DNA of 64,000 bases from an uncultured bacterium (GCA_963718575.1 OY970358.1:728108-792107), one strand, 5' to 3'. Counted from the first letter of the stretch, positions 47,425 through 62,233 are shown. Notes: generated from the sequence alone by a model not told the origin. Numbers and translations are program-made.

Positions 47425-48405
47425 TTGAACGAAAACCCCTCACAAGATATGCCGCCCGTGCCGCCGGCGGAGGAATCCAGTCAGCCGCCCTCGCATCACG
47501 ACGCGCCGGCGGCGTCGCGCAAAAAGAAAGCGCGCCGGCGTCTGGTCATCATTGCTGTCGTCGTGGTGCTCGCCGGCGGCATACTCTGGTATTTTCAAAA
47601 ATCGTTCTCATTGCCGTTGAGGAATATTGCCGCATTCGGGAACTCCGTCGAGACATCGATGAACAGTCAGCTCGCGCAGAACTTTTCCGCACCGTCACCG
47701 TTACAGCAGATCTCGAAGACCGCGCCGAAAAGAGCGAATACGCTCACCGATGCCGGGATCGTCATGCAGACAAACCTTCAGCGAGCGCAAAACGGCGATC
47801 TTCCGCCGCTCACCGAGAATGCCACGCTCGACGACATCGCCACGCTTCGCATCGATGACATGTTCGCCGGGCAATACTTTGCCCACGTCAATTCCTCGAC
47901 GGGGGAAAGCGCGATCACGGTTGCGAGCAGTGTGGGATATTCTTATCTTGCGCTGGGGGAGAATCTTGCGCTGGGAAATTATGCCGGCGACGCCGGGGTG
48001 GTTGCCGCGTGGATGGCGAGTCCCGGCCACCGCGCGAACATTTTGAATACGCATTATTCGGAGATCGGCGTCGCCGTGCGCGAGGGGATGTTCCAGGGAT
48101 CCGAAGCGTGGATTGCCGTGCAGGTATTCGGCCGGCCCGCCTCTGCGTGCACCGTTCCCGACCCGAATTTAAAGACCACCATAGACCTTTCCGAAAATCA
48201 AATCACCGCGATGGCGACACAGCTTCAGTCCGACAAGGCTGTCATCGACGCCATGTCCCCGCAATCCGGGCCTGCCTATAATGCCCAGGTGGAGGATTAC
48301 AACAATCTCGCGGCGGAGTACAACGATCTCGCGGCGCAGACCCAGACGGCGATCGGGGGATATGACGCGGAGGTGGCTGCATTCAATGCCTGTCTTTCCG
48401 AATAG
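47425..48405 (+). CDS. Membrane-anchored CAP/SCP (YkwD-like) domain protein with C-terminal coiled-coil-like tail, directly downstream of ftsEX
   Basis: TM helix, then 'GQYFAHVNSSTGESA...LGENLALGNY...AAWMASPGHRANILNTHYSEIGVAV', the CAP domain, paralogous to 12086. The tail is AEYNDLAAQTQTAIGGYDAEVAAFNA. Confidence 0.7.
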   Translation: MNENPSQDMPPVPPAEESSQPPSHHDAPAASRKKKARRRLVIIAVVVVLAGGILWYFQKSFSLPLRNIAAFGNSVETSMNSQLAQNFSAPSPLQQISKTAPKRANTLTDAGIVMQTNLQRAQNGDLPPLTENATLDDIATLRIDDMFAGQYFAHVNSSTGESAITVASSVGYSYLALGENLALGNYAGDAGVVAAWMASPGHRANILNTHYSEIGVAVREGMFQGSEAWIAVQVFGRPASACTVPDPNLKTTIDLSENQITAMATQLQSDKAVIDAMSPQSGPAYNAQVEDYNNLAAEYNDLAAQTQTAIGGYDAEVAAFNACLSE

Positions 48406-48544: not shown

Positions 48545-50161
48545 ATGAAACATCTTCGACTGGTCATAAAATGTATTGCCATTGGGTTTTTTGCGTTGCT
48601 CATATTTTTCGCCCTTTCACCATTGGGGAAGATCGGCGTTCCCAAAAAGGCCGATGCCGATTCGCTGGATGCGTATCCGAGCGTCTGTCTCGGAGGATGG
48701 CAGAATCCCAGCAATGCTTCCGGCCCGCCGGACGTGCCGCCGGGAGACGATTCTTTTACGGGTGATAATTCCGCCGTGCTCGATCAGGCACAAGCGCAGA
48801 TATTTTGCGGGTCCTTCCAGGCGAGCGATGAATCCCAGACGCCGACCGCGGTCACTCTGCATTTTTCCTGGAATGTGATCTTTTCGAGCCAGGTATCGAA
48901 TGCAACAAGCAATGACCCCGGTGATCCCGAATGGAGCAGCGTACTTGATGCGACGAGCACTGCCACCTCCACGACCACGACTCCTGCACCGACACCGTTG
49001 ACGACAGCATCATCGTCGGACGATCAGAGTCAAAGCATCGATCCGTCCGCAACGAGTGCCGATACTTCTTCGGACAACTCCGGCGGTTCGCAGGACGGCT
49101 CGGTGGCGACCTCCACGCCTCCGCCGGCGACGGTGTCTCCGCCCGCGCCCGATTCATCGGATTCCGATACGAGCTCCACGTCATTCCTGCAAACCATTCT
49201 CAGCGACCCGCTCGGCCTTTTAATCCAAAAGACCTTTGCTCAATCGGTTGATAATGATTCCACTACGGTCGACACCTCCGCTGCCGACGATAGCTCCACT
49301 GTCACCATGGATGCTTCCACGACCACTGACGATTCTTCCGTCGATACCGCAGACGATTTCATTGATGTGAGCTACTCGCTCGACGGGACGACATGGATCG
49401 ATCTCGGACCGGTAAGCGAGTCCGACTGGCAGAACTATTCGGTGACGATCCCGATAAGTTCGTGGAGCGATATCAACAACCTGCAAGTTCAGCTGAGCCC
49501 GCTCATCACTTCCGATGCCCCCACTATATATTTGGATGGCATGTGGCTGGAGGTGGATTACAATAATTCCATCCTGAACGATATTGAGAATGTGATATCG
49601 GACATCTTGCCGACGGATACGCTCTCCACTTCCACCGCGCCCACGAATTCCCTCACGCCGCAGGATGCCACCGATCAGAATCCCGCGCCTGCGCCGCTTC
49701 CGCCTCCACCCCCGCCGATTCCTCAGCATCAGTACACATTCACCCTTCAGGGTCCGCAGTCCATAAAGGTGGGGACGCTTGCGTGGTATCCGCACAACGA
49801 TGCTTCGGGCAGCGCGCCGGTGGGACGGGCAGGGCTTGCCCCTACCGTGAGCCTTCCTGCCACCAATACGATCGAAGTGTCGGGATCATGTTCTGCGGCG
49901 TACTACACCATCCTTATATTTCCGGACGAGAATGATTACGAAAGCAATCCGTCGCTTGCGTTATATAACAACGCCAACAAGTGCGTGAACGGGAGCTTTA
50001 CGCAAATGATCACCGACCTCGATCTTCCGCCGCAACTCGCGAGCGGCATCTACTATCTCGTGGTGGCAAATCAGGGAGTGAAAGGACCATGGGTCCCTTA
50101 TCCGGAAACCTATCCGATCCAACTGAGCGGCGTGTCCAATAGTGCCTCATCATCGCAATGA
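48545..50161 (+). CDS. Membrane-anchored Ser/Thr/Asp-rich surface protein with C-terminal 2-Cys domain (hypothetical)
   Basis: TM helix, long S/T/D low-complexity regions, a poly-Pro stretch, and a C-terminal ~90-aa block (SGSCSAAYYTILIFPDENDY...NANKCVNG...GIYYLVVANQ) shared with 54736..55245. Confidence 0.6.
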   Translation: MKHLRLVIKCIAIGFFALLIFFALSPLGKIGVPKKADADSLDAYPSVCLGGWQNPSNASGPPDVPPGDDSFTGDNSAVLDQAQAQIFCGSFQASDESQTPTAVTLHFSWNVIFSSQVSNATSNDPGDPEWSSVLDATSTATSTTTTPAPTPLTTASSSDDQSQSIDPSATSADTSSDNSGGSQDGSVATSTPPPATVSPPAPDSSDSDTSSTSFLQTILSDPLGLLIQKTFAQSVDNDSTTVDTSAADDSSTVTMDASTTTDDSSVDTADDFIDVSYSLDGTTWIDLGPVSESDWQNYSVTIPISSWSDINNLQVQLSPLITSDAPTIYLDGMWLEVDYNNSILNDIENVISDILPTDTLSTSTAPTNSLTPQDATDQNPAPAPLPPPPPPIPQHQYTFTLQGPQSIKVGTLAWYPHNDASGSAPVGRAGLAPTVSLPATNTIEVSGSCSAAYYTILIFPDENDYESNPSLALYNNANKCVNGSFTQMITDLDLPPQLASGIYYLVVANQGVKGPWVPYPETYPIQLSGVSNSASSSQ

Positions 50162-50790
50162 TAAAATCCCACTCGCTTCACAAAAGCAACATCGTTTTCG
50201 TCTTCAGAGAACACAATGTTCAGCCGCCGGAAAACCATGAGATCGTCGGACTTTATGCCGGCGCGGCCGCGAAGGGGGCGCAACTCGTGGATGATCCGAT
50301 GGTGCGGATGAAAGTGCTTGATGTCCCTGCGCGCGGCCTGCAGGTGGCGTGGGAGTCACGGCGTTTGCGCATCGAGGATATGCGCGCCGTCGAACCCGAG
50401 AGCTCGACGCTCGTCGAGGACGCGGTGATGGTCTACGAAACGCTCGTTGCCCCGCGAAAGATATTCCTGGATTCGTTCGGATTCAACTTTGAGGTCTATT
50501 ATCAGACGGCCGACGTCATCCGCATCAACGATCATTACAACGAGATCGCGGGGACATTCCTCGATCTCGGCACCGGACTTATGGATTTCGGATGGCAATG
50601 GACGGTCGCCGAAAAGAACGGGAAGATGATGAATGGGTATTTTCTGAAAGTGACGGCACCGCTCGAGTTCACGATGCATCACAATACGCATATCGCCGCA
50701 AAAGAGTTGCCGTCAAAGAAGGATCTGCAGGAAATGTTTCAAGACGCTTATGAGGCCACCAACCGCACTGCGGCGAAATTAAAATTATAG
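50158..50790 (+). CDS. Hypothetical cytoplasmic protein
   Basis: 210-aa ORF overlapping the upstream stop (ATGA); no signal peptide and no recognisable domain. Confidence 0.45.
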   Translation: MIKSHSLHKSNIVFVFREHNVQPPENHEIVGLYAGAAAKGAQLVDDPMVRMKVLDVPARGLQVAWESRRLRIEDMRAVEPESSTLVEDAVMVYETLVAPRKIFLDSFGFNFEVYYQTADVIRINDHYNEIAGTFLDLGTGLMDFGWQWTVAEKNGKMMNGYFLKVTAPLEFTMHHNTHIAAKELPSKKDLQEMFQDAYEATNRTAAKLKL

Positions 50791-50806
50791 CGACGCCAAG
50801 TATTTC

Positions 50807-52474
50807 ATGAGCATATCGATCGATCCAAAGAATGGCGTACGGCTGAGGCCGGCCCGTAAAACCGGCCGGGGGATTGCGGCGCTCATCATCGTACTCGAGG
50901 CGGTATTCTCCGTTTTTCTCTATATGTCGCTTGCGGAGAAGGTGTTTGTGGTGATCCCCGCCGCCGCCGCGCCGGGAGTCCCTGGTCTCATCGCGTATCA
51001 AGGCATGCTCACCGACACGTCGGGAAATCCGCTCGGCGGCGCGGGATCGGCCTACTGTTTCCGTTATTCCATTTGGGATTCGCAAACGAGCGGCAGCCAG
51101 CTGTGGCCTCAGCCCGCGCTCGGCGATGCATCGACCACGCCGTCGAATTCCACGACGACGGTGACCGACGGCGTGTTCAGCGATGAACTTGGCCGCACGG
51201 ACACGTTCGGCAGTCTCGACTTTGGCGCGGACACCACGGGGAGTTCGACATATTTTTTGCAGGTGCAGGTGAGCACCTCTTCGCTCACGTGCGCAACGGG
51301 GCTCGAGACGCTTTCTCCCCGCCAGCAGATCACGGCCGACGCATGGTCGCAGACTTCGCAATCGGTGTACGGCAATCAACTTCGCACTCTTGTCTCGAAT
51401 AACACCGTACAGCTTGGCACCGGCGCGGGCGTCGTTTCGGGATGGACCTTGCTTTCCCTCGACGTGGCGCATGGTTCCAGTGAGGCCGTCGGTGGGAGTT
51501 GCACGCAGAACGGCACGTTGTGGTACGACTCGACGCTCAACAAGGCGCTCGTGTGCGCGAACGATATCATCCAGCCGTTCTCGAACGGCACATCGAGCGT
51601 GACGAGCATCGGCACGAGCGGCACGAGCACGATACTCCTCAATAACGTATTTCTCTCCGCATACGCGAACCTTACGCTGAGCCAGAACGGGCAGACGATC
51701 AACTTCTCCGCGGCGGCGCCGGGAGGCGACGCGACGCTGTCGCGATGGGAGGATTATCTGTTGGGTACCAACACGACGGCAATAAGTCTTGCTCCTGCGG
51801 ATGCCTACTTCCAGCCATTTATTCTTCCCACTCCGGTCGCAGTGAGTAATATAAATCTTTTGAAGAGTTTCAGTTTTGGAATGCCGACCGCAACAAGCCA
51901 GGCATCGTCAGGATCGCAACGGTATTCTTATTCTCAGGGAATATCGCTCTTTAGTAGAGTGACGGCTGGCGGCGCCACTTCCCAGATGAGCGTAGTTACC
52001 ACGGCGAGTATGGGATTCACGATGCTCTTTTCCTATACTTCAACGTCCGAAATGCTAAGTGCGACATGGGTAACTAATAGCACCGGTGGAACGACGAGCT
52101 GGGGGACCACATCAAACTCCAATAACTTATCGAGCTATTGGATGTCCGCAAAATATTTTCCCGTACCGCTGGCGACAACTCTTACCGCCGGCGAATACTG
52201 GATGGGGTATGGAATGTCGAGTACGACTGCGAATGCAAACGTCAATGTAACCATCTTATCCATAAACCAGATCGGTTCCAGTATCGGGGCGAATACATTC
52301 GGGGTGCTTGGCAATACATCGGCGGGTTCACGCGCAAGCCTTTTCAACGGCGGTCAAGGTTATGGCTCTGTCCTTGTTGGAGGCGTTGTTACTAACAACA
52401 CAATGCCAATCAGTACCATCAGCGCCTCTAACGCCACCATGCAGCTTCAATACTTCAACTTCGCCGACTACTAA
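50807..52474 (+). CDS. Membrane-anchored Ser/Thr-rich surface protein with GWTL (WxL-like) motif
   Basis: TM helix LIIVLEAVFSVFLYMSLA, extensive S/T/G-rich sequence, and 'VVSGWTLLSLDVAHGS'. Confidence 0.5.
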   Translation: MSISIDPKNGVRLRPARKTGRGIAALIIVLEAVFSVFLYMSLAEKVFVVIPAAAAPGVPGLIAYQGMLTDTSGNPLGGAGSAYCFRYSIWDSQTSGSQLWPQPALGDASTTPSNSTTTVTDGVFSDELGRTDTFGSLDFGADTTGSSTYFLQVQVSTSSLTCATGLETLSPRQQITADAWSQTSQSVYGNQLRTLVSNNTVQLGTGAGVVSGWTLLSLDVAHGSSEAVGGSCTQNGTLWYDSTLNKALVCANDIIQPFSNGTSSVTSIGTSGTSTILLNNVFLSAYANLTLSQNGQTINFSAAAPGGDATLSRWEDYLLGTNTTAISLAPADAYFQPFILPTPVAVSNINLLKSFSFGMPTATSQASSGSQRYSYSQGISLFSRVTAGGATSQMSVVTTASMGFTMLFSYTSTSEMLSATWVTNSTGGTTSWGTTSNSNNLSSYWMSAKYFPVPLATTLTAGEYWMGYGMSSTTANANVNVTILSINQIGSSIGANTFGVLGNTSAGSRASLFNGGQGYGSVLVGGVVTNNTMPISTISASNATMQLQYFNFADY

Positions 52475-52479
52475 ATTCC

Positions 52480-53205
52480 ATGCAACCACAGATCATCGTC
52501 CCTGATTACAAAGGGAGACACAACCAGGACATCGGGAAATCGCAAGAGCGGCTATTACAGTCCAAGGCATATCAAGATCTCTCCACGATCATCATCTGCC
52601 CCACGCGCGGGCAGGTGTCGGCCAAGGTGGTGCAGAGCTGGATGGGACTCATGAAGCCGATGAACCAAAAAGTGATCGGGCCGTTGTTTGCGATCGCCAT
52701 GGAAGTGGGGGAGGCATACAATTCCATGATCGAAATGATACTCGGGAATCCGGAGCTCTCCACTTGGAAATATATCCTGACGATCGAAGAGGACAATATG
52801 CCGCCGCCGGACGGACTTCTTAAGCTATACGAAGACATGGATCAGTACGACGTGGTCGGCGGATTGTATTGGACGAAAGGAGAGGGCGGCCAGCCGATGA
52901 TCTATGGCGATCCCGCCGTGGAACCGATCAACTTTATTCCGCAGATCCCCGAGACCGAAGGGCTTCAGCCGGCGAACGGCCTCGGTATGGGATTCAATCT
53001 TTTTAAGATGGAACTATTCAAAGACCCTAAATTGCCGCGCCCGTGGTTCCGCACTGTACAGGAATTCATTCCGGGGCAGGGCGCGCGGGCTTACACGCAG
53101 GATTTATACTTCTACGAGAATGCCGGAAAGCTTGGCTATAAATTTGCCTGCGACACGCGCGTGAAGGTCGGCCACTATGATGCGGCGATGGACGTCGTAT
53201 GGTGA
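52480..53205 (+). CDS. Putative GT-A-fold glycosyltransferase
   Basis: 'STIIICPTRGQVSAKVVQSW' (Rossmann start), 'YILTIEEDNMPPPDGLLKL' (DxD-like EED), and a C-terminal 'QDLYFYENAGKLGYKFACDTRVKVGHYD'. Moderate pattern-level match only. Confidence 0.4.
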   Translation: MQPQIIVPDYKGRHNQDIGKSQERLLQSKAYQDLSTIIICPTRGQVSAKVVQSWMGLMKPMNQKVIGPLFAIAMEVGEAYNSMIEMILGNPELSTWKYILTIEEDNMPPPDGLLKLYEDMDQYDVVGGLYWTKGEGGQPMIYGDPAVEPINFIPQIPETEGLQPANGLGMGFNLFKMELFKDPKLPRPWFRTVQEFIPGQGARAYTQDLYFYENAGKLGYKFACDTRVKVGHYDAAMDVVW

Positions 53206-53217
53206 TACAATAAATCA

Positions 53218-54228
53218 ATGAAAAAAAATCTTCGCGTCATCCTGATCGTCATTCTCGCGCTTGTCGTCGGCGTCGCGGTGGGATACTTTGTGAACGGGCT
53301 CGTCGCCCCGCCATCGCCGGTCGTCGCGGTGCCTCAAGAACCTTCTCCAGTGCCGATGGTTCAGCCGCTCTCCACCTCCACGACGGGCTACGGGTTGTTG
53401 AATGGCGACGTCGCCTGGCAGAGCGGTCAGCACTTCATTGTCAACTTCGAACCGCTTCGTGCCCAGATCGCTTCCATCACCCAGGAGTATCCCCAGAACA
53501 CCTATATCTATTTTGATTATCTGAACAGCTCGGCCAACTTTGGCACCAACGCGCGAATGCTCTTTACGGCGGCCAGCACCGTCAAGGTTCCGCTCGCAAT
53601 GGCGGTCTATAAAATGGCGGAAGAAGGAAAATTGGACATGAACTCCAATTACACCCTTCAACAATCCGACCTTGACAGCAATTTTGGCACGCTCTACAAG
53701 GCCGGTGCCGGAGCGACGTACACTATCCAGCAGCTCGTTTCCATCATGCTTGAACAATCGGACAATACCGCCATGAATGCGCTTCTTTCCGCGCTGAACA
53801 ATATCGGGGTAGCCGATCCGTTCGCGGACGTCTATCAGCAGATGGGGTGGAATAATTTTCCCACAATCGGTCAGTCCACCAACTATGCGGATTACATAAA
53901 CATCGACGTCCATACGCTTTCCAACATGTTCCTTGCTCTTTATAATGCGAGCTACGACAGTCCTGTCGATTCGCAGGCGATCCTTTCATATCTTACGCAG
54001 ACGCCATTTAGCGATGAGATCGTCGCGGGCGTGCCTTCAAGCACTATCGTGGCCCATAAGATCGGCACCTCGGCCGACAATAACACCTATTCCGATTGTG
54101 GTATCGTGTATGCTCCGTCGCGTCCATACATCCTGTGCGTGGGATCGAGCGGCGCGAGCGAACAATCGGCAGATCAGTTCATTTCGCAGGTATCCAAAGC
54201 CACCTACCAATACGTCATTAATAACTAA
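53218..54228 (+). CDS. Membrane-anchored class-A beta-lactamase-fold serine hydrolase (PBP/beta-lactamase-like)
   Basis: TM helix, then the SxxK motif (AASTVKVP), the SDN motif (EQSDNTAMN) and a KTG-like motif (HKIGTS). Confidence 0.65.
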   Translation: MKKNLRVILIVILALVVGVAVGYFVNGLVAPPSPVVAVPQEPSPVPMVQPLSTSTTGYGLLNGDVAWQSGQHFIVNFEPLRAQIASITQEYPQNTYIYFDYLNSSANFGTNARMLFTAASTVKVPLAMAVYKMAEEGKLDMNSNYTLQQSDLDSNFGTLYKAGAGATYTIQQLVSIMLEQSDNTAMNALLSALNNIGVADPFADVYQQMGWNNFPTIGQSTNYADYINIDVHTLSNMFLALYNASYDSPVDSQAILSYLTQTPFSDEIVAGVPSSTIVAHKIGTSADNNTYSDCGIVYAPSRPYILCVGSSGASEQSADQFISQVSKATYQYVINN

Positions 54229-55715: not shown

Positions 55716-57065
55716 TTGTCTGCGGCTGTGAAAAAACGAATATTTTTTTTCATATTGATAGCGGTTGGACTGCTCTCCGGCGTTTCTCATGCGCAGGTGG
55801 TCCTTATCAACTCCTCTTCCACGGATTTTTTCCTCAGGGCGGAGACTGAAAGCATCGTTGGAAATTCGCAGTCGACGGACTTCGGTCTTTTTAACAGCGG
55901 GCAGACGCTTTCACTCCCGCTCATGTCATCGGCCGATTTTCAGATCTTTTCCGGGATCATCAAGCCGATCTTCCAGCCGGTGAAGCCGATCTATGCGCAG
56001 ATCCACTATCAATGGCGAAACGATAATGGCAGCGAAACCTCCGCCACTTCCGCGACGGGAGGAAGTGAAGATACTGTGCTCACCGGCCTCGCACAGAATT
56101 CCAGTATCCGCGTCCGGATGGAAATAACGAATTCCGGCGGTACGATCCTTTCCTATTCGTCGCAGTCGTTTCAGTTGCAATACGGTCAGTTGAGCACTAC
56201 CTGTTCCGCCATCTCGTCATGGACGGGGGTCGGCACCGCGAGCGCGGTATGGGCGATGTATAACTCGGGCAATCTGACCGACGGGCAGAATACCACAAAC
56301 ATTGCCACTTCCACCGGCGGCGTGGTAGACGCGAATCACACCTTTATCGTAGCGAACGCCGGAGTGAAGACCACGACGAGCACGGTGAGCGCGATCTCCG
56401 TGCCAAGCGATTCGTTCATCGAGATGGAGTTCGATATCCAGGCGCTTTCCAGTTCCACGGCGGGTGCCACCTATTGTTTCCGGCTTACCAACGCCGGTTC
56501 GGCAACCAACTTTTCATATTCGCAATATCCGCAGGCGACGCTTTCCAGTCAGTCGATAACGCTCACGCTCAATACTGCGACCGTGAACTTGCCGGCGCTC
56601 GCTCCGGGGGTCGCCGGTTCCGCGACGACCACGGCGACCGTGAGCGTGACCGGGGCCTCGAGTGGATATACGCTATCCATCAACCGCAATTCCGCAACCT
56701 CGACGCTTACTTCGGGCACGATCCAATTCCCCGACGCTTCCGCATGGAACCCTTCGGGATCGAGCTGTGCATCCGGACAGGGGAATGGCACGACGACGCC
56801 CGGCAATACATTTTCGTTCCGCGTGGCGTCTTCCGGTACCACCGCAAACTATTGCTCGTTCTGGTGGGGTGCGAGTGACACCGGTGGAACGGCATTATAT
56901 GCGGGCGTGCCCACTTCCTCCAAGATCATCGTCAACTCCACATCGTCGGCGTCGCAAAACGGTACCACTGCGGTAACGATCATATATAGCGCGAATGCGC
57001 CATTGAGCCAGGAAGCGACAAGCTATACGGGAAGCGTTACCATCACTGCGATTGCGAACCCGTAG
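55716..57065 (+). CDS. Secreted Ser/Thr-rich WxL-like surface protein (long paralog)
   Basis: Signal peptide (TTG/GTG start ambiguity). C-terminal ~190 aa are homologous to 57119..57778 (LPALAPG...SINRNSATSTLTSGTIQFPDA...YTGSVTITAIANP). Confidence 0.55.
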   Translation: MSAAVKKRIFFFILIAVGLLSGVSHAQVVLINSSSTDFFLRAETESIVGNSQSTDFGLFNSGQTLSLPLMSSADFQIFSGIIKPIFQPVKPIYAQIHYQWRNDNGSETSATSATGGSEDTVLTGLAQNSSIRVRMEITNSGGTILSYSSQSFQLQYGQLSTTCSAISSWTGVGTASAVWAMYNSGNLTDGQNTTNIATSTGGVVDANHTFIVANAGVKTTTSTVSAISVPSDSFIEMEFDIQALSSSTAGATYCFRLTNAGSATNFSYSQYPQATLSSQSITLTLNTATVNLPALAPGVAGSATTTATVSVTGASSGYTLSINRNSATSTLTSGTIQFPDASAWNPSGSSCASGQGNGTTTPGNTFSFRVASSGTTANYCSFWWGASDTGGTALYAGVPTSSKIIVNSTSSASQNGTTAVTIIYSANAPLSQEATSYTGSVTITAIANP

Positions 57066-57118: not shown

Positions 57119-57778
57119 ATGGAAAAATCACTGGTCGGGCCTTCTTTGAAAGTGTTCTCGTTCGTCGTATCTATAGCGGTGTTGGTCGGTGTCATTGCAA
57201 ATTTTGGAGGAAAAATTTTCACGCCGACGGCGCATGCATTGACATCCACTTCGACCACGCAAACGATCAATGTGACGGTCAATCAAGTCATCACGCTTTC
57301 GCTTGGTACCTCCACGTTAAGCCTGCCGGCTCTTACGCCGGGCGCTCCGGTCACCGCAACGACGAGCGCGACGGTCACCACAAACGCATCTGCGGGATGG
57401 CAGTTGGATTTCAACCGCAACAGTGCCACATCGACGATCGCATCCGGCACCATAACCTTCCCTGATGCAACTCCCTTCAACGGTTCCAACGCAACGACAA
57501 CAGCGAACCTTACGAATAGCGGACAGGTGCTCGCATTCCGCGCCTATCAGACGGGTACGAGCGCGGGTATCTACAATGCGACAACCTGGGGAGCAAACGA
57601 TGCAGCAAGCGCCATGTGGGCCGGTTTTCCCACCTCGACCGTTGTTGCGGTGAGCACAAGCACATATATCGGTAGCGCACAGACCGTTGTATACGGGGTC
57701 TATGCCAACGCACCGGCCACACAGGTTGCCACCAACTATACCGGAACGATCACTGTCACAGCGATAGCGCTTCCGTAA
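57119..57778 (+). CDS. Secreted WxL-like domain protein
   Basis: Signal/TM, then 'ASAGWQLDFNRNSATSTIASGTITFPDA', the first WxL-like motif in its usual context. C-terminal 'YTGTITVTAIALP'; T/S-rich. Confidence 0.55.
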   Translation: MEKSLVGPSLKVFSFVVSIAVLVGVIANFGGKIFTPTAHALTSTSTTQTINVTVNQVITLSLGTSTLSLPALTPGAPVTATTSATVTTNASAGWQLDFNRNSATSTIASGTITFPDATPFNGSNATTTANLTNSGQVLAFRAYQTGTSAGIYNATTWGANDAASAMWAGFPTSTVVAVSTSTYIGSAQTVVYGVYANAPATQVATNYTGTITVTAIALP

Positions 57779-57808
57779 GGCGGGTGTGGTGTGGTATCCT
57801 TATCCAAT

Positions 57809-58714
57809 ATGAAAAAGAACGCAGGGGTTCTGTCTCTCACCTTCGCCGCGGTTTTAAGCTTATTTTTTTTGTTCCCCAATCAAAGTCACGCGCAAGTAGG
57901 AATATCCCTGTTTCCGATAAAATTCGATGTCACTGTTGCGCCGGGTCAGACCTATTCCGATACGGTCACCGTCATCAATCCGAACAATTTCCCGATCGGC
58001 GTCCAGCCGGAGGTGGAGAACATCGCAGGCGGCAACCAGGGTTCGATCGATCTGACCGACACCGACATCCCGCACGGACTTTCCGCGTGGATCAACCTCA
58101 ATGAGGCGGAATTCACGCTTGCTCCGCAACAACAGCTGCAGATACCATTCACAATCACGGTGCCGGCTGACGGCGAGCCGGGCGGCCATTATGGCGCGAT
58201 CCTTTTCCGCGGACTTTCTGCGGGATCTTCGACCAATGCCGGGGTCGGTATCTCCGGCAGGGTGGGGACGGTCATTCTTTTGAATGTGCCGGGCGCATCC
58301 TATGCCACCGGAAATGTGGCGAGTTTCGCTGGCCCTGCCGCGTATGTCTCCCACGGTCCGTTCCCGTTCACATTCACGGTGAACAACACCGGTAACACGC
58401 ACTTTACTCCACAGGGACAGATCGCGTTGAGCGGTCCGTTCTTTGGCAATGCCGTGGTGCCATTCACCTCCGGAATCGTTTTCCCCGGTTATGATCGGAC
58501 GTTCACCGCAAGCTGGCCGGGGCGCTACGCGTTCGGCCCCATCACGGCGACGCTTTCGCTTACCATACCCGACAACACGAGCACGGTGGTCGAGACCATC
58601 ACATTCTTTGCCTTTCCATGGCAGGAGACGCTGATCGTGCTCGTCATTCTTCTTGTCCTTTTCTTTATCTTTAAGACCTGGAAGAAGAATTTCAAGATTG
58701 TGCGGGTAAAGTGA
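57809..58714 (+). CDS. DUF916 (CscA)-like cell-surface protein with C-terminal TM anchor
   Basis: Signal peptide, then 'ISLFPIKFDVTVAPGQTYSDTVTVINPNNFPIGVQ...ITVPADGEPGGHYGAILF' matching the DUF916 pattern (YFDL..PG..QTL.V.L.N.S...I ... GG.Y). C-terminal helix LIVLVILLVLFFIF followed by basic residues. Confidence 0.55.
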   Translation: MKKNAGVLSLTFAAVLSLFFLFPNQSHAQVGISLFPIKFDVTVAPGQTYSDTVTVINPNNFPIGVQPEVENIAGGNQGSIDLTDTDIPHGLSAWINLNEAEFTLAPQQQLQIPFTITVPADGEPGGHYGAILFRGLSAGSSTNAGVGISGRVGTVILLNVPGASYATGNVASFAGPAAYVSHGPFPFTFTVNNTGNTHFTPQGQIALSGPFFGNAVVPFTSGIVFPGYDRTFTASWPGRYAFGPITATLSLTIPDNTSTVVETITFFAFPWQETLIVLVILLVLFFIFKTWKKNFKIVRVK

Positions 58715-58726
58715 TACAGTAAGAAG

Positions 58727-59941
58727 GTGAAGAAGGTAATATGCAGCGCCATATTCTTCGGGGCATTGTTTCCGGTTCTCATTGCGAGCGCCCAGATTTA
58801 TAATGCGGCGAATTCTATGCAGTTGACGGTCACGGTGGTATATCCTCCGGTCGCTCCCGCTGACCTTAATGCCACGACAACATCGAGTTCGGAGATCGAT
58901 CTTTCTTGGGTGACTACCAGTACGAATCAGGCCGGATTTTCCATAGAAGAGTCGGTGGGGAACGATGCTCTTTTTACACCGATCGACACGGTCGGGCCGG
59001 CGGCCAGGAGTTATTCACGCACCGGACTTTTGCCGAGCACGACCTATTTCTATCGGGTGAGGGCGTATAATGGCGCGGGTTCAAGTGCGCCGTCCAACGA
59101 AGCCGCCGCAACGACATCCGCTGCTCCTTCGGGCAATACCGGCGGCGGATCGGGTGCCGGCGGTTCTTCCGGTGGCGGTGGAGGAGGAGGCGGATCGTCA
59201 TATGTGCCGCCGGTCTTCCAGACGTCGGCGATGTTCAGCGGTATCGCATATCCATTGAGCACGGTCACGCTCCTTGAAAATGGCCAGGTTGCCGCCGTGA
59301 CGCAATCGGGGCCTGATGCAACATTCCAAATAAACCTTGCGAATCTTCCGGCCGGAACATATAACTTTGGGGTCTCTGCAAAGGATCCGCAGGGAAACCA
59401 TTCGGCCATCCAGACGTTTTCAAGCACCCTCACTCCCGGCGCGGAGACGGTGATCAGCGGGATATTTTTCCCGCCTACCATCACCGCAGATAAAGTGCAG
59501 GTGAAGCGGGGGGATGTGCTTACATTATTCGGATACGCCGCGCCACAAGGGCAGGTTGCCGTGATGGTCAATTCCCTGAATGAGATCTCGGCGACCGTGA
59601 CATCGACCGCGTCGGGGCTATGGACCTATCCGGTGAGCACCGACCAGCTGGAGATGGGAGGGCACACGGCGCATGTGTGGGAAGCAGCCGACGGCAACGT
59701 GACGCCGGATTCGGAAATATTCTCATTCACGGTCGGCAATACCGACGTTGCTGCGCCGCCGGTATCGGCGGGTCCGTCGAAAGGCGATGTGAACGGAGAC
59801 GGGAAAGTAAACCTCCTTGATTTTTCGATCATGGCCTATTGGTGGGGAAAGTCGAATCCGCCGGCGACGTTGCGGCTCGACGGCAAACCGGAGATCGACC
59901 TTGCCGATTTCAGCATCATGGCATATTACTGGACCGGCTGA
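58727..59941 (+). CDS. Secreted FN3-domain protein with C-terminal type-I-like dockerin
   Basis: GTG start and signal peptide. FN3 region (PADLNATTTSSSEIDLSWV...STTYFYRVRAYNGAGSSAPS). Poly-Gly linker, Ig-like region, and C-terminal 'GDVNGDGKVNLLDFSIMAYWW...LDGKPEIDLADFSIMAYYW', two dockerin Ca-binding repeats. Confidence 0.7.
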   Translation: MKKVICSAIFFGALFPVLIASAQIYNAANSMQLTVTVVYPPVAPADLNATTTSSSEIDLSWVTTSTNQAGFSIEESVGNDALFTPIDTVGPAARSYSRTGLLPSTTYFYRVRAYNGAGSSAPSNEAAATTSAAPSGNTGGGSGAGGSSGGGGGGGGSSYVPPVFQTSAMFSGIAYPLSTVTLLENGQVAAVTQSGPDATFQINLANLPAGTYNFGVSAKDPQGNHSAIQTFSSTLTPGAETVISGIFFPPTITADKVQVKRGDVLTLFGYAAPQGQVAVMVNSLNEISATVTSTASGLWTYPVSTDQLEMGGHTAHVWEAADGNVTPDSEIFSFTVGNTDVAAPPVSAGPSKGDVNGDGKVNLLDFSIMAYWWGKSNPPATLRLDGKPEIDLADFSIMAYYWTG

Positions 59942-59942
59942 C

Positions 59943-60845
59943 ATGAAAAAAACATTCCCGGTGATAGTGTTTGCGATCGCGCTCATGTTTCCCTGGCGTT
60001 CATTCGCGTCCGTGATGACCATCGCGCCATCGCCCACGAACTCCGATATGATCGTGGTCAGCCTTGATACGCAGGGGGATTCCATCAATGCGATACAGGG
60101 ACATTTTACATTTGATACAAACGCATTTTTTGTGAATGAGGTGAGTGACGGAAATTCCATCGTCAATTTCTGGGTCGAGGCGCCGGCGTTTTCAAACACC
60201 TCCGGCACGTTGGATTTTGCGGGGATCATTCCCGGAGGGGAAGTGACAGCTGATGGAGTCATTGCCACGATCGGCATCACCCCGCGGGGATCGGTTGCGA
60301 CGTCGGGCTTTGCGCTCGTTTCCGCGCAGGCACTTTTGAATGACGGGAACGCGACGCCGTCGGACCTTTCCGTGGCAAGCAAGCCATTTCCGCTCGTGGC
60401 CGGAAGTGTTCCGCTGATAGGCCAGAACTCACTCGCGCCCGATCCGTTCACGCCACAGGTCGGCCGGGATCCGGGCATTTTCAACGGACAGTATTTCGTC
60501 GCCTTTACCGCCACGGACCAGGGATCCGGTATCGACCACTACAATGTGCTCGAGGTGCCGGCAGGGACGAAGATATCGACATCATCCGACTGGCAATGGG
60601 CGACCTCCCCTTATCTTCTCCGCGATCAGACGCTTTCAAGCGATATTTATGTGCGTGCGTTCGACGAGTCGGGAAATTTCCGCACGGAAGAGATCCCCGC
60701 AAAACATAAAAAGCCGGGGGGGTCGCTCCCGTGGGGGGATATCGGAATGTCCGCCGTAGCCATAGTGTTACTATTATTAGTGATAGGACTTATCCGCAAG
60801 CGTCGAACATGGAAAAGGAAACGATCCGCAGGAAATTTTGCGTAG
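59943..60845 (+). CDS. Membrane-anchored cohesin-domain protein 1
   Basis: Signal peptide MKKTFPVIVFAIALMF. Cohesin-like block 'DSINAIQGHFTFDTNAFFVNEVSDGNSIVNFWVEAP...GTLDFAGII...DGVIATIGITP'. A second beta domain contains 'SGIDHY'. C-terminal TM AVAIVLLLLVIGLI + RKRR. Starts 2 nt after the dockerin gene stop. Confidence 0.6.
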   Translation: MKKTFPVIVFAIALMFPWRSFASVMTIAPSPTNSDMIVVSLDTQGDSINAIQGHFTFDTNAFFVNEVSDGNSIVNFWVEAPAFSNTSGTLDFAGIIPGGEVTADGVIATIGITPRGSVATSGFALVSAQALLNDGNATPSDLSVASKPFPLVAGSVPLIGQNSLAPDPFTPQVGRDPGIFNGQYFVAFTATDQGSGIDHYNVLEVPAGTKISTSSDWQWATSPYLLRDQTLSSDIYVRAFDESGNFRTEEIPAKHKKPGGSLPWGDIGMSAVAIVLLLLVIGLIRKRRTWKRKRSAGNFA

Positions 60846-62233
60846 CACTTGGGGCCGTCGCGCTGTGTGTGGTTCTTTGGGGTGCCCATGACGCCCACGC
60901 GGCGATGCTTTCCCTCTCTCCGCAATCGGGAACCTATTTTACCGGGAGAAGCTTCAGCGTCTCCGTGGAAGTTTCCTCGCCCGGAGAGGCGATCAATGCG
61001 GTACAGGGCGAGGTCACTTTCCCGAAGAATGATCTCGAAGTGCTTTCGGTCTCTAAAGCGAATTCCGTTCTGAATCTCTGGGTGCAGGATCCGACATTTT
61101 CAAACCAGGATGGTACGGTTGATTTTGCGGGAGTCGTCCTGAGTCCCGGGTTTCAAGGCGCCGCCGGAAATGTAATTACGATCACCTTCGAAGCGAAGAG
61201 TGCCGGCGTCGCTCCGCTCTCGATCGATCCGGCGTCGGTGCTTGCGAATGACGGAAGCGGAACGGATATCTTGACCGCCACGCAGGGCGCTTCGTTCACG
61301 ATGGCTCCGCTTTCTACGGTGCCGGGTCCCCCGGCCACGGGAAACGTGAATATGGATATGGCATCGAGTACGGTGTCACCGTCGACCGTCATTACCTCGA
61401 GCCCGCTCATCACAAACGGAGCATGGTACAACATCAACCAGGTCACCTTTAACTGGAATGTTCCGGCGGGCGCCGACGGCATCAATTACATGATATCGAC
61501 CGACCCCAACCTCCACCTCCCGGACGTGAATCAAGGATTGGTCTCGCAGACCTCGTATGATCTTTCGAACTTTGCCGACGGCGTCTGGTACTTTTTTGTG
61601 AGCTTCGAAAATGGCAGTGTATGGTCGCCGCCGGCGGTGGAGAAGCTGATGCTTGATCGCACCCCGCCCGATTCATTTGTCATCACGCGGGAAGATACCG
61701 ACCTAACGGATCCCCAGCCGGTGTTCTCGTGGCTCGCGACCGACGGGATGTCTGGCATCGACCACTACGAAGCGAAGATCGGCGACGGTGACTGGTTCAA
61801 TCCTGCGAACTTTCAGAGTGGAAATTCATTGTATGCGTTGCCGGTTCAGTCACCGACGGCCGGCCGCTGGCTCACGGTGCGGGCGTTCGACAAGGCAGGG
61901 AATTATACCGATGCCTCGATCAGTTTCCGCGTGCTCGCGCCGGAGGCATCATGTGCGGGAGCCGCGACGTTATGCGCACTTTCCGAATTCTTCGTGCAGT
62001 GGAGCTGGTTGATGGTGTTCATGCTGATCATCCTTCTTATCGTGGCATACGGTTTTATCTATCATCTTCTACGGTGGAAGAAGCGTTCGTCGAAAGTATT
62101 GAAAAAATTCGAAGATATATTGAGCGGGGATCTCGGCGGACCTCACCTTTTAGCCGAACAGCCCGAACTCGAAAAAATCGTTCAGCCCGTTGTTGACGAT
62201 GTGAGGGAAGGGGGAGAAGGACCGAAGGAATAG
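60809..62233 (+). CDS. Membrane-anchored cohesin-domain protein 2
   Basis: Signal peptide. Cohesin-like block 'EAINAVQGEVTFPKNDLEVLSVSKANSVLNLWVQDP...GTVDFAGVV...NVITITFEAKSAG'. 'SGIDHY' beta domain shared with protein 1. C-terminal TM LMVFMLIILLIVAYGFIY + RWKKR. Overlaps the upstream gene by 37 nt. Confidence 0.6.
   Translation: MEKETIRRKFCVALGAVALCVVLWGAHDAHAAMLSLSPQSGTYFTGRSFSVSVEVSSPGEAINAVQGEVTFPKNDLEVLSVSKANSVLNLWVQDPTFSNQDGTVDFAGVVLSPGFQGAAGNVITITFEAKSAGVAPLSIDPASVLANDGSGTDILTATQGASFTMAPLSTVPGPPATGNVNMDMASSTVSPSTVITSSPLITNGAWYNINQVTFNWNVPAGADGINYMISTDPNLHLPDVNQGLVSQTSYDLSNFADGVWYFFVSFENGSVWSPPAVEKLMLDRTPPDSFVITREDTDLTDPQPVFSWLATDGMSGIDHYEAKIGDGDWFNPANFQSGNSLYALPVQSPTAGRWLTVRAFDKAGNYTDASISFRVLAPEASCAGAATLCALSEFFVQWSWLMVFMLIILLIVAYGFIYHLLRWKKRSSKVLKKFEDILSGDLGGPHLLAEQPELEKIVQPVVDDVREGGEGPKE

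Follow-up and report, generated by a model that had tools for sequence, protein, structure and literature searches.

Cohesin and dockerin modules have been described in several kinds of system. In the cellulosomal type I system, dockerins connect an enzymatic cargo to a multi-cohesin scaffoldin, with carbohydrate-binding modules (CBMs) also present, and single-cohesin anchors such as Clostridium thermocellum OlpA and OlpC and A. cellulolyticus ScaC (structures 3ul4, 4dh2 and 4uyp) are held by SLH domains. The type II cohesin-X-dockerin system (C. thermocellum SdbA/CipA; 2b59, 5k39) is recognized by a cohesin with an inserted alpha-helix and beta-flaps, a dockerin fused to an X module, and SLH or sortase anchoring. 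Non-cellulosomal pairs are represented by the Archaeoglobus fulgidus cohesin (2xdh) and by the toxin and glycosidase cohesins of Clostridium perfringens (2vo8, 2w1n, 2jh2); non-cellulosomal cohesin and dockerin modules are reportedly found in all three domains of life. Here, we describe a three-gene locus, A-B-C, in a 64,000-nucleotide (nt) stretch of DNA from an uncultured bacterium (GCA_963718575.1 OY970358.1:728108-792107; “the window”). Open reading frame (ORF) calling places the three genes, tightly packed on the plus strand, at 58727-62233, as originally predicted. A is a secreted protein that ends in a dockerin, and B and C are membrane-anchored proteins that each begin with a cohesin. 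We think it rather probable that A-B-C is a self-contained module by which a Paceibacteria-type (Patescibacteria) bacterium displays a protein on its surface through non-cellulosomal cohesin-dockerin pairing.

As proposed here, A-B-C would operate much like the Archaeoglobus and C. perfringens pairs. Unlike those pairs, its cohesins are carried by dedicated type I membrane proteins, its predicted dockerin cargo comes without an enzyme, and the trio is a fixed operon across a whole candidate superphylum, with a pairing predicted from genetic linkage. B and C would likewise operate as the cellulosomal single-cohesin anchors do, except that they are anchored by a C-terminal transmembrane (TM) helix and not by SLH domains. 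Unlike the cellulosomal type I system, the trio lacks a CBM, a multi-cohesin scaffoldin and an enzymatic cargo, and the dockerins of the A family differ from cellulosomal type I dockerins in the DFSI.AYYW signature of their helices, in a protein end at exactly WTG, and in a second loop that is often non-canonical. The trio shares with the type II system the idea of anchoring a secreted component, as well as an Ig-like domain before the dockerin of A. However, the cohesin model of B has no helix and fits type II structures less well, anchoring is by a TM helix, and a linker separates the Ig-like domain of A from its dockerin, unlike in the type II X-dockerin.

A large part of uncultured bacterial diversity belongs to the Patescibacteria. 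Many of them are believed to live in attachment to other cells, and few of their surface systems are understood. Cohesin and dockerin genes in genomes of the candidate phyla radiation (CPR) have been noted earlier, only in passing, and a literature search found no publication that describes a conserved dockerin/two-cohesin trio. The trio is an uncharacterized, widespread, dedicated, enzyme-free, membrane-anchored dockerin/two-cohesin module of Patescibacteria. As a fixed three-gene module in hundreds of species-level genomes, it gathers dispersed “cellulosome-like” annotations under one defined system that can be tested for a role in surface display or attachment, and it is a warning against inferring cellulose degradation from such genes in CPR metabolic reconstructions. 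For the cohesin-dockerin field, it offers a large divergent subtype (DFSI.AYYWTG-COOH helices), natural losses of Ca2+ ligands in loop 2, and a possible arrangement of one dockerin with two cohesins.

Conservation of the three-gene order

Relatives of B were found in 279 species genomes by a combined pattern and tblastn scan that covered one genome per GTDB species. The reliably named carriers are Parcubacteria/Paceibacteria (Wolfe-, Kaiser-, Nomura-, Vogel-, Lipton-, Niyogi- and Jorgensenbacteria), as well as Uhr-, Falkow-, Magasanik- and Veblenbacteria and Doudnabacteria. ORFs were called and profile searches run on 80 retrieved loci, and linkage was counted over 76 species-level loci. Of the 63 loci with room for a dockerin gene upstream of B, 62 have one in the directly adjoining position, the single exception being a locus with an extra cohesin gene in between. 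Directly downstream of B there is a C-type cohesin gene in 69/72 loci, and the full trio is present in 67. Gene order is conserved in ~70 species-level genomes, while the flanking genes vary from genome to genome, which identifies the trio as the conserved unit. The trio is thus a widespread, syntenic Patescibacteria operon that is ordinary for that clade, and the original expectation that it would be unusual there has to be dropped. NCBI names many of the homologues “cohesin domain-containing” or “dockerin type I repeat-containing” protein; proteins A, B and C of the source genome are annotated “hypothetical”. Together they account for every such module in the window, which holds one dockerin and two cohesins in total.

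The spacer between A and B has a median of 19 nt across loci, and most loci have an overlap between B and C (median spacing −22 nt). In the window, a single nucleotide separates the TGA of A from the ATG of B. The tight coupling that had been proposed, with stop and start 2 nt apart, therefore stands for A and B with a corrected distance; C is spaced differently, its ATG lying within B at an overlap of 37 nt. That start of C agrees with an identical 474-amino-acid (aa) database protein (P0241). For A, the NCBI/ENA protein has 374 aa and begins at the internal Met31 (58817), without a signal peptide, whereas the 404-aa JGI call and the orthologues (~400 aa, with signal peptides) back the GTG start given in Table 1. 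Two minus-strand ORFs that overlap A and B, at 59050-59571 and 59723-60514, were rejected as shadow ORFs of well-supported plus-strand genes. A promoter and terminator scan gave the same counts as in shuffled sequence.

Individual loci depart from the common layout. On a 682-kb chromosome (L018:4961-15286), the system occurs twice, at a distance of ~3 kb, and in the first copy an additional C-type cohesin gene separates the dockerin gene from B. On a 400-kb contig labelled “uncultured Gammaproteobacteria”, from a binchicken metagenome-assembled genome (L068:8799-11895), a type IV pilus set replaces C and follows B: PilM, a response regulator, a type IV pilin (MNKKGFTLIELLVVIAIIG...) and a prepilin peptidase. 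This locus hinted at a connection with type IV pili, which we rejected as a local coincidence, PilM and PilD being found in none of the other loci. Downstream, the trio is followed by ATP synthase in the window and in L001, and by formyltransferase and deformylase genes on the opposite strand in L003. An essential dockerin-domain protein has been described in Southlakia (PMC10633639). Its SEML1_0315 was rejected as an orthologue: the 927-aa gene stands alone, flanked by an alpha/beta hydrolase gene and a tRNA gene, and is not part of this operon.

Domain architecture and fold of A, B and C

By hydropathy, B and C each have a signal peptide and one C-terminal TM helix followed by basic residues. 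The two proteins are paralogues: their cohesins are 33% identical (E 4e-16), and their second domains, both of which contain the motif SGIDHY, are 27% identical. The homologues of B number 264, almost all of ~300 aa; C has at least 498. Because the sequence of B alone was too weak, its fold had to be compared. An AlphaFold2 (AF2) model built from 35 orthologues has a predicted local distance difference test score (pLDDT) of 87.3 and shows nine beta-strands in residues 23-146, a second beta domain at 172-251 and a helix over the TM segment. The strands form the nine-stranded flattened beta-sandwich (jelly-roll) of a cohesin. In a Foldseek comparison with the PDB, the first 39 places are all taken by cohesins, headed by 2w1n, a cohesin+FN3 construct; TMt values are 0.73 for 6kgc_A, 0.73 for 2xdh (Archaeoglobus) and 0.70 for 2vo8 (C. 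perfringens). Cohesins rank clearly above every other fold, and the closest are cellulosomal type I cohesins. The original prediction had called the system type-II-like; judged by the model, the cohesins of B and C are type-I-like instead, and the TM-helix anchoring also departs from type II.

Orthologues extend this picture to both families: Pfam Cohesin matches 20/31 C orthologues at E ≤ 1e-3 (best E 2.4e-10) and 7/35 B orthologues at E ≤ 0.01. The cohesins of B and C have 16 conserved positions in common (N49-A50, S72, W77, P81, F92, G94, G99, L131, N133-D134-G135, G137 and others), and no positions that are conserved differently between the two, as specificity determinants would be, were found at the 80% level. 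Among the stalk domains, that of B has a sub-threshold NCBIfam match to an OmpL47-type barrel, Big_13 is found in 19/31 C orthologues, and the SGIDHY domain of C resembles a chitinase FN3 domain (6bt9; E 0.0018). The C family carries a conserved, charged, helix-prone cytoplasmic tail of ~90 aa, which in the window (62060-62230, residues 418-474) is ~24 residues shorter. The family tail is also weakly similar to proteins with a TM segment and a long helix, e.g., ATP synthase subunit b (E 0.006, probably compositional).

A type I dockerin consists of two tandem ~22-residue repeats, each a 12-residue EF-hand-like Ca2+ loop (D/N at positions 1, 3 and 5; D at 12) followed by a helix; in the fold, the two helices run antiparallel and pack around the two Ca2+ sites. 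A ends in two repeats, GDVNGDGKVNLLDFSIMAYWW at residues 353-373 and LDGKPEIDLADFSIMAYYW at residues 385-402; these motifs, and SGIDHY in B and C, had all been quoted correctly at the outset. Repeat 1 is canonical, with the loop DVNGDGKVNLLD and the helix DFSIMAYWW. In repeat 2, the loop RLDGKPEIDLAD is degenerate, without ligands at positions 1 and 5, and the helix DFSIMAYYWTG-COOH is kept. The family consensus, GDLNGDxRVNLVDFSIxAYWYKR..PPA..DLNGDGKVDLxDFSIMAYYWTG-COOH, has two canonical loop-plus-helix repeats. Loop 1 is canonical in 66/69 A orthologues, and the helices and the C-terminal end, [YF][YFH]W[TS]G, are nearly invariant, more so than the Ca2+ ligands. Dockerin_1 matches 27/34 A orthologues at E ≤ 1e-3 (best E 5.9e-10), and a profile of the dockerin only (last 59 residues) matches a solved dockerin, 2y3n_B, over both repeats (E 2.5e-7), followed by other cellulosomal dockerins. 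When the dockerin profile was run exhaustively as a hidden Markov model (HMM) against 1.84 billion cluster representatives, there were 6320 matches at E ≤ 1e-3, of which 1242 reached E ≤ 1e-10. Among the best 150, this dockerin subtype is nearly always a single copy at the exact C-terminus of a protein of 200-500 aa.

The remainder of A consists of an N-terminal hydrophobic signal, with no TM helix by hydropathy, and a series of beta domains. Residues 166-232 match Big_13 (28.3 bits) and Big_6 (27.4 bits), and the second Ig-like domain is conserved in the family alignment. At least 996 homologues match the C-terminal half of A (last 245 residues). What stays constant in the family is the stretch from the poly-Gly linker through two Ig-like domains to the dockerin. 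The module at the N-terminus differs; it is fn3 in 14/34 orthologues, and others have a Cys-rich module instead. Pfam finds only fn3, Big_6 (in 31/34), Big_13 and dockerin domains in the 34 orthologues. Searches of the same proteins found no glycoside hydrolase (GH), carbohydrate esterase (CE), polysaccharide lyase (PL) or CBM domain. The linker (residues 136-158), with its Pro-rich flanks, separates the first Ig domain from the variable N-terminal module in all 34, and its G149-G151 are nearly invariant; it could be a hinge or a processing site. The FN3/Ig, dockerin, cohesin and TM-anchor architecture originally read from the locus is thus borne out by domain searches, fold comparison and orthologue matches alike. 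All coordinates are collected in Table 1.

Table 1. Coordinates of the A-B-C genes, their domains and the three genes upstream (positions in the window)
Feature	Position	Strand	Description
Gene A	58727-59941	+	404 aa; GTG start, TGA stop 59939-59941; secreted, dockerin-bearing, predicted cargo protein
A signal peptide	58727-58795	+	residues 1-23, hydrophobic core 4-22, ...IASA/Q (hydropathy)
A FN3 domain	58853-59104	+	residues 43-126; Pfam fn3 39.9 bits, cut-off 25
A poly-Gly/Ser linker	59132-59200	+	residues 136-158
A two Ig-like domains	59222-59734	+	residues 166-232 and ~240-336
A dockerin	59780-59938	+	residues 352-404; two repeats, C-terminal
Gene B	59943-60845	+	300 aa; type I membrane protein, N-terminal cohesin
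B cohesin domain	60009-60392	+	residues 23-150; nine beta-strands
B FN3/Ig-like stalk domain with SGIDHY motif	60435-60707	+	residues 165-255
B TM helix and basic cytoplasmic tail RKRRTWKRKRSAGNFA	60738-60842	+	TM helix residues 266-284 (hydropathy); model helix 264-297
Gene C	60809-62233	+	474 aa; type I membrane protein, N-terminal cohesin
C cohesin domain	60902-61318	+	residues 32-170
C two Ig/FN3-like stalk domains	61391-61948	+	residues 195-290; SGIDHY domain 291-380
C TM helix and 57-aa charged cytoplasmic tail	62003-62230	+	TM helix residues 399-417 (hydropathy, alignment)
g449	55716-57065	+	secreted beta-rich protein, T/S/A/N-rich
g219	57119-57778	+	secreted beta-rich protein, T/S/A/N-rich
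g307	57791-58714	+	DUF916/WxLIP_PGBD and C-terminal TM helix

Proposed function and rival readings

We propose that B and C are exported by Sec and held in the membrane by their C-terminal TM helix, each raising one type-I-like cohesin on one (B) or two (C) FN3/Ig-like stalk domains. A would be secreted without an anchor of its own and retained by its C-terminal dockerin, plugged into the cohesin of B and/or C. The outward part of A would then comprise the variable N-terminal module (FN3 here), the poly-Gly linker acting as a hinge, and the two Ig-like domains. Judged by its domains, A appears to be a dedicated, non-enzymatic cargo; having no catalytic domain, it would most likely serve as an adhesin or a structural surface element that binds a host, a substrate or the cell wall. 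The two near-identical helices of its dockerin (DFSI.AYWY and DFSI.AYYWTG-COOH) would present two faces, and the dockerin may bind B or C alternately, or bridge both. Since 16 conserved positions are common to the two cohesins and none is conserved differently, B and C probably recognize the same kind of dockerin face. These common positions are compatible with a conserved interface between the proteins, as is the stronger conservation of the dockerin helices and C-terminal end relative to the Ca2+ ligands. While the analysis shows the domain identities, the topology, the conserved order of the genes and the lack of enzyme domains, we infer physical binding between A and B or C, its Ca2+ dependence, its stoichiometry and the adhesive role. 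The surface docking module originally suggested is consistent with the domains, the fold and the orthologues.

Several observations weigh against such a module. In the window, the scores for Pfam Cohesin (PF00963) are 20.6 bits for B (E 5.6e-4) and 19.8 bits for C (E 9.5e-4), below the gathering cut-off of 24.1, and searches of PDB sequences with the single sequence and with the B-family profile found no cohesin. The match of A to Dockerin_1 (PF00404; 22.4 bits, E 1.4e-4, residues 352-370) also falls below its cut-off (22.9), with repeat 1 alone aligned. The degenerate loop 2 of the source genome recurs in four relatives, and loop 2 is fully canonical in only 32/69 orthologues. An AF2 model of the 59-aa dockerin, with helices at 18-27 and 47-58, has a pLDDT of just 65.8, and below 50 in loop 2; its best Foldseek matches are dockerins (5nrk, 4dh2) but are non-significant (E 1.5-9). 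Repeat 1 of this model superposes on dockerins at 0.4-0.6 Å over 20 residues; we have not counted the low-confidence model as positive evidence. Many genomes, moreover, are said to have orphan modules that resemble dockerins or cohesins and do not pair. In the HMM searches proposed for the locus, fn3 scores above its cut-off in the window, Dockerin_1 and Cohesin are significant by E value but just under theirs, and many orthologues match. The matches go beyond chance, since each protein has hundreds of full-length homologues and the gene order recurs in ~70 species-level genomes. The proposed structure prediction gave a cohesin fold for B and, at low confidence, the two expected helices for the dockerin of A.

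One way to read the locus is that the modules are cohesin-like and dockerin-like in fold alone and do not bind each other. A, B and C would then be three independent surface proteins, with Ig-like stalks and, on A, a Ca2+- or glycan-binding tail, co-transcribed because they belong to one envelope structure, perhaps together with the upstream DUF916-type genes. We consider this unlikely, although it is the rival to be taken most seriously. It leaves unaccounted for a dockerin gene that near-universally adjoins two cohesin genes and is translationally coupled to them, and dockerin helices, the cohesin-contacting elements in known complexes, that are invariant beyond the Ca2+ ligands; B and C also retain the same conserved surface motifs, and cohesins rank clearly above all other folds. 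A minimal cellulosome, in which B and C, as anchoring scaffoldins, would present polysaccharide-degrading enzymes with dockerins for the use of complex carbon, is in our estimate highly improbable. The literature has taken such CPR genes that way: Kantor et al. 2013 described an OD1 cluster as “putative cellulosome-related” and tied it to carbon degradation (PMC3812714), and Bell et al. took the cohesin and dockerin proteins that a Shapirobacterales genome expressed to be a cellulosome (bioRxiv 10.1101/2021.08.21.457207). The likeness of the B fold to cellulosomal type I cohesins also points in this direction. However, the only dockerin protein in the 64-kb window has FN3 and Ig domains and no catalytic or carbohydrate-binding module, and the lack of GH, CE, PL and CBM domains in the 34 A orthologues is matched by ten of the longest carriers of the dockerin subtype, where scanning likewise found none. 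Eight of these ten have Dockerin_1 alone or with fn3/Big_6, one has a BNR propeller, and the tenth is a multi-dockerin protein with a subtilase. The term scaffoldin, used in the original prediction, does not suit B or C, which have one cohesin each and no CBM match; with a single cohesin per anchor protein, multi-enzyme scaffolding is not possible. The trio is, in addition, conserved across many Patescibacteria lineages whatever the habitat. Because there is no multi-cohesin scaffoldin, no CBM and no enzyme cargo, the search for such cargo having covered the window, the A orthologues and the long carriers but not the whole genome, A-B-C is not a cellulosome.

A more ambitious possibility is a trans-envelope sensor or attachment clamp, in which one asymmetric dockerin bridges B and C (1:1:1) and the cytoplasmic tail of C couples surface contact to a cytoplasmic partner. 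The joint retention of B and C in 69/72 loci, usually overlapped, would suit it, as would the conserved difference between the two dockerin helices (AYWY.R and AYYWTG-COOH) and the conserved ~90-aa tail of the C family. Against it stand the lack of differently conserved positions in the B and C cohesins, which argues against two specificities, the shortened tail of C in the source genome, and the lack of a conserved cytoplasmic partner gene in the neighbourhood. The clamp is pure inference, and we regard it as decidedly improbable. The broader claim that the trio is a lineage-wide surface organelle of Patescibacteria, a 1:1:1 dockerin-B-C clamp with a variable adhesin tip directed toward a host cell and coupling to the cytoplasm through the C tail, we hold to be just as doubtful; if true, it would mean that a cohesin-dockerin system has been re-purposed for episymbiotic attachment or contact sensing, and not for enzyme assembly.

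Upstream genes and wider neighbourhood

Three further genes, g449, g219 and g307, precede A on the same strand (Table 1), with successive spacers of 53, 12 and 12 nt up to A, and are probably members of the same operon as A-B-C. g449 and g219 have a common C-terminal end, Y-T-G-(T/S)-(I/V)-T-(V/I)-T-A-I-A-(L/N)-P, and g307 matches WxLIP_PGBD (PF06030) at 34.9 bits (cut-off 27.3). The arrangement is reminiscent of the WxL/Csc loci of Firmicutes in that a small and a large gene for secreted beta-rich proteins come before the gene for a TM-anchored DUF916 protein (g307). Unlike those loci, there is no LPXTG protein, and g219 and g449 were rejected as WxL-domain proteins: 21 family members gave no WxL match at E ≤ 1 in Pfam, and NCBIfam gave no match either. 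In 33/59 loci, the gene immediately upstream of A is g307-like, and these WxL/Csc-like genes are thus tied to A-B-C in just about half of loci.

In 14 loci (L013, L029, L032, L034, L037, L039, L048, L052, L061, L064, L068, L071, L073 and L081), a giant related protein of 1000-2000+ aa adjoins the trio, usually upstream and in place of g449, g219 and g307. The giant protein of L032 lies downstream of C, and that of L068 has no Pfam match. Several of these loci encode an A whose N-terminus cross-matches g449. Farther upstream in the window, the plus strand encodes a CAP/cysteine-rich secretory family protein (47425-48405) and a class A beta-lactamase-like protein (53218-54228; Beta-lactamase2, E 2.3e-39); between the two, at 48545-53205, are four ORFs of 210-555 aa that have no Pfam match.

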